DNA of 64,000 bases, taken from positions 67,727 to 131,726 of the forward strand of contig WJJZ01000001.1 in assembly GCA_014729395.1 (NCBI GenBank), written 5' to 3'. The position numbers were made by a program, and so were the translations under genes. Positions within the stretch are counted from its first letter, which is position 1; each line of letters begins with the position of its first letter. The notes under the pieces were generated by a model. The model worked only from the letters and a program-made list of their open reading frames with translations, did no database searches and was not told where the DNA came from. This document shows positions 59,757 through 60,777 of the stretch, piece by piece. This stretch comes from Candidatus Magasanikiibacteriota bacterium (GTDB taxonomy: Bacteria; Patescibacteriota; Patescibacteriia; Magasanikbacterales; UBA922).

Positions 59757-59789
59757 AAAAAAAACGCCCGGCAACTGAAGCTGCCAGGC
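59757..59789 (-). terminator. Intrinsic terminator of the GC-rich cassette gene
   Basis: GCCTGGCAGC-TTCA-GTTGCCGGGC + T8 on minus, 20 nt after the stop. Confidence 0.45.
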
Positions 59790-59808
59790 AAGTGTGAAGA
59801 AAAAAAAT

Positions 59809-60600
59809 TTATTTTCTAAGGTAATCAACACCCAGGAGAAAAAAACCCACATCGTTAAATCTACCACCGTCACCCCATAAACGGTATTGCAGGCCATACC
59901 CCCCTTCAAAACCGCCCACAATAAAACGGTCACCACTCGGGTCTAATGTATTTGAGCAAGCAAAACGCGAATTGAGTGGCACTCTTTCTCCAGTCCGCCT
60001 CAAATGAGCTAGAATTAAACCAAACAGTAACGCAACGGGCCCAAACCGACCACAATGGGTTTCGGGTAGATCGTGCTTTTGCCAGAGATATTCTTCATGT
60101 TGTTTCATGCTGTTGGCAGTTGTGTCAGTACTATCCTCGGCAAGACGCGGTACCCAGAACACAAGGCAGTGCCGGGTAGGCTTCACCTCGGGATAGAAGG
60201 TTTGAAAGTATTTGAGATTTTCATTGCATGGACCGGCTATGGGAGCATGTTGATGCACTGTGAAACCCGGCTTAACCAACCAGGCGACGGGTCCGATATA
60301 GTCTCTTTTGGTAGCATATTTGCGCCAGCGTTCAACCTTTCTTTTAGCGTATGCAACCCCTGCTTTGCAGTGGTAACCACGTCCTACCAGCAAGGCCACA
60401 GCCCAGTCGTCGTCTTCGATTGGAATGGGGAGGAGATCTTCTTCTGCCCCGACAGTATCAAACACGACTGTCTTTTTTGACTTCAGTTGTTCAAGAAACA
60501 TACGCACTTGTCCGGTATTGCCCGGGTCAAAGAGAACTTTTGAACGATCATCTCCAAGCTCACGTATAAGGTGAGCGGCCTGTTTTACTGATACACTCAT
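59809..60600 (-). CDS. Hypothetical protein encoded by a compositionally foreign (about 50 percent GC) gene
   Basis: AAGGAG SD before ATG 60600. Codon usage rich in G/C-ending codons, unlike all neighbours. No motif recognised. Confidence 0.5.
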   Translation of the reverse strand: MSVSVKQAAHLIRELGDDRSKVLFDPGNTGQVRMFLEQLKSKKTVVFDTVGAEEDLLPIPIEDDDWAVALLVGRGYHCKAGVAYAKRKVERWRKYATKRDYIGPVAWLVKPGFTVHQHAPIAGPCNENLKYFQTFYPEVKPTRHCLVFWVPRLAEDSTDTTANSMKQHEEYLWQKHDLPETHCGRFGPVALLFGLILAHLRRTGERVPLNSRFACSNTLDPSGDRFIVGGFEGGYGLQYRLWGDGGRFNDVGFFLLGVDYLRK

Positions 60601-60777
60601 GCTTTCTCCTTTTGCTTCCCTACTAGGGGAAAACCAACTCCTTCCCAATATTGACAAAGAGGAAGCCGGATTTGTCCGATCTTCTTATAAACTTCCATTT
60701 TGAAAATCTAAAAGAAAACCAAAAACAGCCATGTTTGGCTGTAGGAAAACATAGATATTAATATTTGTCAATATTAT

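Follow-up and report, generated by a model that had tools for sequence, protein, structure and literature searches.

The closest described relatives of the gene considered here are the target genes of diversity-generating retroelements (DGRs), and in particular those of a clade restricted to the candidate phyla radiation (CPR), termed clade 2, whose elements are cellular rather than viral and whose targets lack recognisable domains (Roux et al., 2021; PMC8144416). Further points of comparison are provided by TvpA, the Treponema denticola variable protein 1 (PDB 2Y3C), Mtd of Bordetella phage BPP-1 (PDB 1YU0), and TaqVP (5VF4). The present analysis concerns a stretch of 64,000 nucleotides from a Candidatus Magasanikiibacteriota genome (contig WJJZ01000001.1, positions 67,727 to 131,726; hereafter the window), in which a minus-strand gene belongs, judged by its sequence, to a family of DGR variable proteins found in Patescibacteria. 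Such proteins are already known from Patescibacteria, and the window gene adds a solitary member to them. The features of the gene on which the comparison rests are as follows.

59809-60600, minus strand: DGR-type variable-protein open reading frame (ORF), 263 amino acids plus stop codon, containing GGFEGGYGLQYRLWGDGGRFNDVGFF
59833-59949, minus strand: segment equivalent to the variable region (VR), residues 218-256 (TLDPSGDRFIVGGFEGGYGLQYRLWGDGGRFNDVGFFLL), homologous to the segment rewritten from the template repeat (TR) in relatives
59809-59832, minus strand: 3' end of the ORF, equivalent to the initiation-of-mutagenic-homing site (IMH), GGTGTTGATTACCTTAGAAAATAA, diverged and AT-shifted relative to the family sequence GGGGGTGGAGAAGCTCGG

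Like the clade 2 DGRs, the family occurs in the same host phylum and consists of cellular elements, and the window protein resembles the targets of that clade in being small, in having no recognisable Pfam or transmembrane domain, and in carrying a C-terminal VR within a presumed variant of the C-type-lectin fold (PMC8144416). It differs from them firstly in that TR, Avd and reverse transcriptase (RT) are all missing from the 64 kb in which the window copy lies, and secondly in that over half of all family loci collected are solitary, whereas CPR DGRs have been reported with single adjacent targets. With TvpA the window protein shares 11% identity; the N-terminal helical region differs, and a reading of the sequence reveals no apparent signal peptide or lipobox, nor is there a Pfam FGE-sulfatase signal. 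Mtd is a trimeric phage tail-fibre protein, whereas the family of the window gene is chromosomal and small, with no phage relatives found.

The original prediction for this region, made from the letters of the sequence without database searches, had described a self-contained single-gene cassette with an AAGGAG Shine-Dalgarno sequence and its own terminator, located directly upstream of a citryl-CoA-lyase-like gene, and had recognised no motif and assigned no function. The anatomy and position of the cassette were confirmed, in that a leader, the ORF and a terminator were found and the lyase-like gene lies directly after the target gene at 58964-59689, while the verdict on function is superseded by family membership: what appeared to be an anonymous "foreign" gene can now be interpreted as a stand-alone member of a CPR hypervariable-protein family.

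Homologues of the window protein are DGR targets

Searches with the 263-amino-acid protein returned no match in Pfam, NCBIfam, PHROGs or PADLOC, and a profile search of PDB sequences yielded chance matches only. The ORF is composed of an N-terminal helical region (approximately residues 1-100) followed by a C-type-lectin/FGE-fold domain; specifically, TvpA, Mtd and TaqVP have the C-type-lectin/FGE fold that the AlphaFold model matches, classical C-type lectins are also among the fold matches, and the VR lies at the C-terminal end of the predicted domain. As a Foldseek search of the model against PDB gave nothing significant, independent evidence was sought in homologous loci.

A search of 5.8 billion proteins identified 23 homologues, all unnamed or hypothetical and one assigned to Candidatus Buchananbacteria; family homologues score at E = 1e-50 to 1e-30, and the nearest are 46-52% identical to the window protein. 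An exhaustive profile search places the size of the family at 299 clusters at 50% identity. Genome and metagenome scans provided 36 family loci, which occupy unrelated genomic contexts and of which the named ones are Patescibacterial, except for one in a metagenome-assembled genome labelled Gammaproteobacteria (L009). Viral or phage copies of the family were looked for, and none was found.

Eight distinct loci (L003/L038, L010/L011, L014, L017, L018, L019, L020 and L028) hold a second copy of the final ~115 nt of the ORF, which is 80-89% identical and located 300-430 nt downstream. Mismatches between the two copies fall almost entirely on adenines of the downstream copy (126 of 134), and the pair therefore bears the TR/VR signature of a DGR; within a locus, TR and VR differ at 1-3% of non-adenine and 43-80% of adenine positions. 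The TR codons are rich in AAC, as in GGC AAC TTC AAC GAC AAC GGG CTC AAC TGC AAC AAC TGG, and the repeats end in an IMH/IMH* pair, the VR in ...CTCCTGGGGGTGGAG and the TR in ...CTCCTGATGATGTGA. A bAvd ORF on the opposite strand is present in seven of the eight loci, these being all that have enough downstream DNA (L020 does not), and an RVT_1 reverse transcriptase with GNLTSQ...YADD follows it in five. Pfam confirms both RVT_1 and bAvd in L003 and L018, and the gene order of complete loci is target-TR-avd-RT. On these sequence signatures, the homologues are DGR targets that are rewritten by adenine-specific mutagenesis.

In the mechanism that we propose, the window gene would encode a DGR target protein of a Patescibacteria-restricted type whose C-type-lectin/FGE-fold domain presumably binds a ligand, perhaps an intracellular one given the lack of a signal peptide, and residues 218-256, approximately the last 40 of the domain, would correspond to the surface that is rewritten in relatives by adenine-specific mutagenic retrohoming from the TR.

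A solitary copy: detached or remote target

Within the window, which extends 59 kb 3' of the target gene, the side on which the family carries its TR, avd and RT, and 3.4 kb 5' of it, no TR-like repeat of 59751-60010 was detected, nor any DGR-type RT motif ([I/L/V]GxxxSQ, YxDD) or RT or Avd homologue by motif search and tblastn; the window gene is therefore solitary. Approximately 12 distinct family loci with 2-8 kb of flanking DNA on each side are likewise without TR, RT and Avd. When GC-rich solitary copies are compared with heterologous TRs, they mismatch at 5-17% of non-adenine and 41-76% of adenine positions; for the window copy and its nearest heterologous TR the respective values are 34.8% and 66.7%, so that the pattern of variable positions is kept while the scaffold has strongly diverged. 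Further signs of erosion are found along the cassette. The -10 box of the promoter is degenerate, leaving 9 of 12 matching positions in comparison to 12 of 12 in half of the loci; the G-run of the IMH has diverged, the equivalent segment being AT-shifted (GGGTGTTGAT versus GGGGGTGGAG in the family); the usual scaffold Cys of GLxC is a Tyr; and GC content at third codon positions (GC3) is 0.43 versus ~0.69 in most relatives.

Given an even chance of being correct, the reading towards which we lean is that the window copy is an orphan, detached from its retroelement, and that it now evolves like any ordinary binding protein of fixed sequence. Several observations weigh against it and would suit instead an active remote target, diversified in trans by a TR, Avd and RT elsewhere in the genome, with the terminator doubling as target-recognition hairpin. 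Firstly, the ORF is intact, as is the leader, and every family-invariant residue is present. Secondly, published criteria for DGR target hairpins, which follow a GC-rich IMH at the VR 3' end, consist of a GC-rich stem of 7-10 bp, a 4-nt loop, and a distance of 4-34 bp from the VR, and the cassette terminator, a hairpin of 10-11 bp that begins 18 nt past the stop codon, matches such hairpins in stem, loop size and VR distance (PMC3240598), although its loop, TTCA, does not conform to the GRNA consensus described for phage DGR hairpins (PMC3240598). Thirdly, the ~12 solitary loci keep IMH-like ends and an adenine-biased divergence of the VR, and the paralogues of L007, ~66% identical elsewhere, share a stretch of 88% identity that covers the final ~30 nt of the ORF and continues for ~10 nt past its end. 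Additionally, other DGRs are known to have remote targets (PMC5758913). A remote target is nevertheless opposed by the lack of retroelement parts throughout the DNA searched on both sides, by the eroded IMH G-run and -10 box, by published surveys, in which remote targets occur only in another DGR lineage and CPR elements have single adjacent targets, and by the finding of an identical protein (P0016) in four assemblies with its VR unchanged. We thus regard an active remote target as a real but somewhat less probable possibility than the orphan.

Solitary loci are also found on long contigs, L001 on one of 300 kb and L006 on one of 239 kb. One near-complete Patescibacterial contig of 958 kb (Ga0265297_10000004) contains two solitary family genes ~500 kb apart (L026 and L034), one with a leader and the other without, the latter encoding 197 amino acids and being less GC-rich. 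Tandem family paralogues separated by 45 nt and preceded by one leader are found in a Magasanikiibacteriota host of 28% GC (L007, 5971-7494; L016, 2290-3813; L023, 3971-5494). Two strains of the L007/L016 type with 97.4% identity show 177 differences, of which 100, indels included, fall within the 3'-terminal 500 nt of copy 1, while copy 2 is nearly unchanged; this comparison was considered as proof of diversification in trans and set aside, as the indels and the ~500-nt span look like an allele swap and not clean adenine mutagenesis. tRNA genes adjoin the cassette promoter upstream in two lineages (L003, ~5560-5660, and L007/L016/L023), which hints at tRNA-adjacent insertion of these cassettes.

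A conserved structured leader RNA precedes family genes

Alignment of the family loci demonstrates that similarity begins exactly at the -35 box and continues through a leader of ~130 nt to the ATG. In the window the leader and its elements are located as follows.

60601-60728, minus strand: conserved structured 5' leader RNA, ~130 nt, AT-rich
60720-60702 paired with 60696-60678, minus strand: P1, a long pyrimidine/purine hairpin
60679-60666, minus strand: short hairpin after P1
60662-60638, minus strand: P3-like stem
60633-60614, minus strand: P4-like stem

RNAalifold analysis predicts three helices, namely P1, P3 (9 bp) and P4 (7 bp). The consensus P1 has 20 bp, individual sequences reaching as many as ~25 bp, and is formed between a conserved pyrimidine strand (CUUUCUUUUUG) and a purine strand (CAGAAAGAAGG). 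Paired cells make up 95.6% of the alignment, and compensatory changes are observed at 18 of 36 pairs; none of 500 shuffled alignments reached any of five measures, and slid controls were paired at 47-60%. Many of the pairs are G-U, so the structure is specific to the sense strand, and a covariance model gives 82-137 bits for the sense strand versus 20-56 bits for the antisense strand. The model matches a locus only once, in every case immediately ahead of the first family gene, and the leader accompanies linked and solitary copies alike; the match is weak and partial (~21 bits) in L028 and L024 and absent from L034, while the leader of L003 holds an extra hairpin within the P1 loop. The window leader (60598-60728, minus strand) forms a similar P1 when folded and scores 55.7 bits with covariance model R1, a value to be read with the window being itself a training sequence.

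No credible match to the window region or to L001 was found in Rfam, the best being at E = 0.08-0.9 and far below gathering scores. In the DGR literature searched, the only RNA motif mentioned is one located between TR and RT (PMC5737381), and no mention was found of either a leader RNA or a GC excess confined to the target. The presence of a perfect helix of ~20-25 bp behind a consensus promoter suggests that the leader serves in expression control or that P1 is an RNase III-type processing site. In silico blocking of the 5' strand of P1 leads the purine strand to pair with the pyrimidine tract that comes next, and a conformational switch through this alternative pairing could exist. Two other candidates were rejected: a leader peptide, as its ATG is missing from L003, L006 and L022 and hence not conserved, and a triple helix in which the purine tract would bind both pyrimidine tracts, which, by reasoning from the sequence, strand polarity rules out, each pyrimidine tract being antiparallel to the purine strand.

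The cassette interrupts a citryl-CoA operon

The signals that delimit the cassette around leader and ORF are these.

60763-60772, minus strand: promoter remnant, TTGACA-17-TTTCCT, 9 of 12 matches, -35 box kept and -10 box degenerate
60725-60742, minus strand: weak terminator-like hairpin and U-run between promoter remnant and P1
60606-60611, minus strand: Shine-Dalgarno sequence AAGGAG, separated by 5 nt from the ATG at 60600
59755-59790, minus strand: intrinsic terminator, stem 59790-59780/59775-59765, loop TTCA, U8 tail

The promoter remnant begins 8 nt past the stop codon of a HAD hydrolase gene, of which the hairpin at 60725-60742 is probably the terminator. A perfect TTGACA-17(16)-TATAAT promoter is found in 11 of 22 distinct family loci, and at least 10 of 12 positions match in 18 of the 22. 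The terminator at the opposite end of the cassette, which begins 18 nt past the stop codon, is composed of 11 pairs and a 4-nt loop (-19 kcal/mol, z = -4.2).

Many family members end in an additional conserved C-terminal peptide, LGQPAxKAGE (L010/L011, 4590-4621; L018, ~4725-4756; also proteins P0002, P0003, P0005-7 and P0010). At the DNA level this peptide is a GC hairpin, GCCCGCC-n5-GGCGGGC, directly after the IMH, and in these members the target hairpin of the DGR appears to have become part of the coding sequence.

The operon surrounding the cassette (57566-63679, minus strand) resembles one for citryl-CoA synthetase/lyase, the two-step ATP-citrate lyase, in this Candidatus Magasanikbacteria genome, and is also seen in L039-L044. 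L040 and L043/L044 carry, in this order, the genes for ATP-grasp/citrate-binding subunit, CoA-binding subunit, citryl-CoA lyase and MJ0043_C (PHP/MJ0043_C) protein, with a gap of 5-21 nt between the CoA-binding subunit and lyase genes. In the window this conserved synteny is interrupted: the HAD hydrolase gene, of host-like GC (0.316), and the target cassette lie between those two genes. The same junction holds an unrelated 292-amino-acid ORF in L039 and a 23S-rRNA-IVP protein gene in L041/L042, such that each of three lineages has a different insert before the lyase gene. The strong terminator of the window cassette cuts the operon, and promoter-like sites then precede the lyase gene. Since relatives have either a contiguous operon or other inserts at this position, the cassette is an insertion at a variable junction, and in our proposal the insert between the genes for the CoA-binding subunit and citryl-CoA lyase comprises promoter remnant, leader RNA, ORF and terminator hairpin. 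This Avd-like insert of L041/L042 was considered as a link to DGRs and dismissed, there being no similarity to DGR Avd.

GC-rich composition is a trait of the family

The compositional anomaly that had first drawn attention to the region holds up: the ORF has a GC content of 0.480, in comparison to 0.359 in the window as a whole (z = 3.1 relative to 792-nt windows), and coding-strand adenine is 0.256 versus 0.351. With the codon usage of 44 window genes as reference, the GC excess can be partitioned. Host codon usage would give the encoded protein a GC content of 0.427, in comparison to a mean of 0.357 and a maximum of 0.421 for the reference genes; amino-acid composition thus accounts for ~0.07 of the excess, and synonymous codon choice adds 0.053 (z = 4.9 against the 44 genes). 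The original prediction had drawn the GC-rich stretch from about 59795 to 60720. It is the minus-strand ORF alone that is GC-rich, with GC changing abruptly at each end, whereas the 130 nt upstream (60601-60728) are the AT-rich conserved leader and are likewise part of the cassette. Four segments of the window reach at least 45% GC, namely the target ORF and three others, RNase P RNA among them.

That prediction had also taken the composition as a clear signature of horizontal acquisition. The cassette is indeed inserted and the family scattered; the argument from GC fails, as is evident from the homologous loci. GC content exceeds that of the flanks in all 36 family ORF copies, by 5-28 points and on average by 14, and target-gene GC follows host GC (r = 0.84, slope 0.69). 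A sub-lineage with ~75% nucleotide identity between its ORFs retains 0.55-0.575 GC in hosts of 0.35-0.46. The excess covers the whole ORF and not the VR alone, the mean outside the last 150 nt being 0.545. In complete elements only target gene and TR are GC-rich: RT and avd stand at 0.36-0.38 and 0.35-0.43, respectively, in hosts of ~0.41-0.45, and RT reaches only 0.49 in a host of 0.6. Because the offset is found in every copy, tracks the host, persists over divergence and is not shared by RT and avd, it represents a maintained trait of the family and poor evidence for recent transfer; the composition did not lead to a foreign donor but to the family itself. In our proposal the GC-rich, adenine-poor composition of the window gene would be this maintained trait, partly eroded toward that of the AT-rich host.

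That the gene was recently acquired by horizontal transfer, from a GC-rich donor whose foreign composition would ameliorate with time, is consequently improbable. Such a transfer would account for a GC and codon-usage outlier inserted in a conserved operon and for the occurrence of family members in unrelated contexts. Set against it, in addition to the universal, host-correlated excess that survives ~25% nucleotide divergence and spares the RT and avd of the same elements, are a nearest homologue with only 46-52% identity, the almost exclusively Patescibacterial distribution of named homologues (L009 excepted), and the failure to find phage or viral copies. Less probable still is an enzyme of the FGE or EgtB type (formylglycine-generating or sulfoxide synthase) that has nothing to do with DGRs in this genome. 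FGE, EgtB and OvoA are enzymes with conserved catalytic and metal sites, whereas the window protein has no sequence-level match to them: Pfam FGE-sulfatase does not match even at E = 0.1, identity to FGE/EgtB-type chains is 6-13%, and the equivalent surface is hypervariable in the family. Moreover, direct homologues are demonstrably DGR targets, and the conserved C-terminal pattern is that of a VR scaffold. An assembly chimera or contamination, in which a foreign fragment was joined into the contig, would explain the abrupt GC shift at the ORF ends but is hardly credible, because the combination of AT-rich leader and GC-rich ORF is the normal anatomy of the family in more than 20 independent assemblies, the leader being homologous to the family leader and continuous with the ORF, and the flanking genes are those expected of the operon.

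Three features stand out: an uncatalogued structured leader RNA that accompanies DGR target genes, the high share of targets without an adjacent retroelement, and a maintained GC-rich, adenine-poor composition confined to the target genes. For GC-based transfer scans the last of these calls for caution, in that a target runs ~14 points (5-28) above its host while its own RT does not. A broader proposition, which we hold to be doubtful, joins the three: the leader would be an undescribed class of cis-acting RNA of Patescibacterial DGR targets, solitary cassettes would be remote targets diversified in trans, and the composition would be maintained for DGR function. If this were true, CPR genomes would contain dispersed, co-regulated hypervariable binding proteins missed by RT-anchored DGR surveys. 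CPR bacteria are thought to depend on host contact. RT-anchored surveys themselves state that targets without an adjacent retroelement escape them (PMC8144416).

Other features of the window

A second compositional outlier is a gene for an archaemetzincin-like metalloprotease (9923-10639, plus strand), with GC 0.484 and GC3 0.523 versus 0.322 expected for the host; its match to NCBIfam archmetzin (E = 4e-16) is below the cutoff, and that to Pfam Peptidase_M54 is weak. An ORF of 502 amino acids (129-1637, plus strand) with signals of MopE-type metal-binding and thrombospondin type-3 repeats is also GC-rich (0.471; GC3 0.471 versus 0.315 expected), and the first kb of the window has ~48% GC and the second 42%. 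RNase P RNA of bacterial class A occupies 14950-15472 (plus strand), and since it spans 523 nt versus the 367 positions of the model, it must hold sizeable insertions. tRNA genes are located at 1942-2013, 15508-15591 and 55318-55390. Lastly, an ORF of 76 amino acids (57282-57512, plus strand) consists almost entirely of Lys/Arg/Thr/Pro repeats (KRKTTKRKPAKRK...) in a region of local AT skew up to 0.59, and could either encode a basic protein resembling histone H1 or have arisen by chance within a purine-rich repeat.
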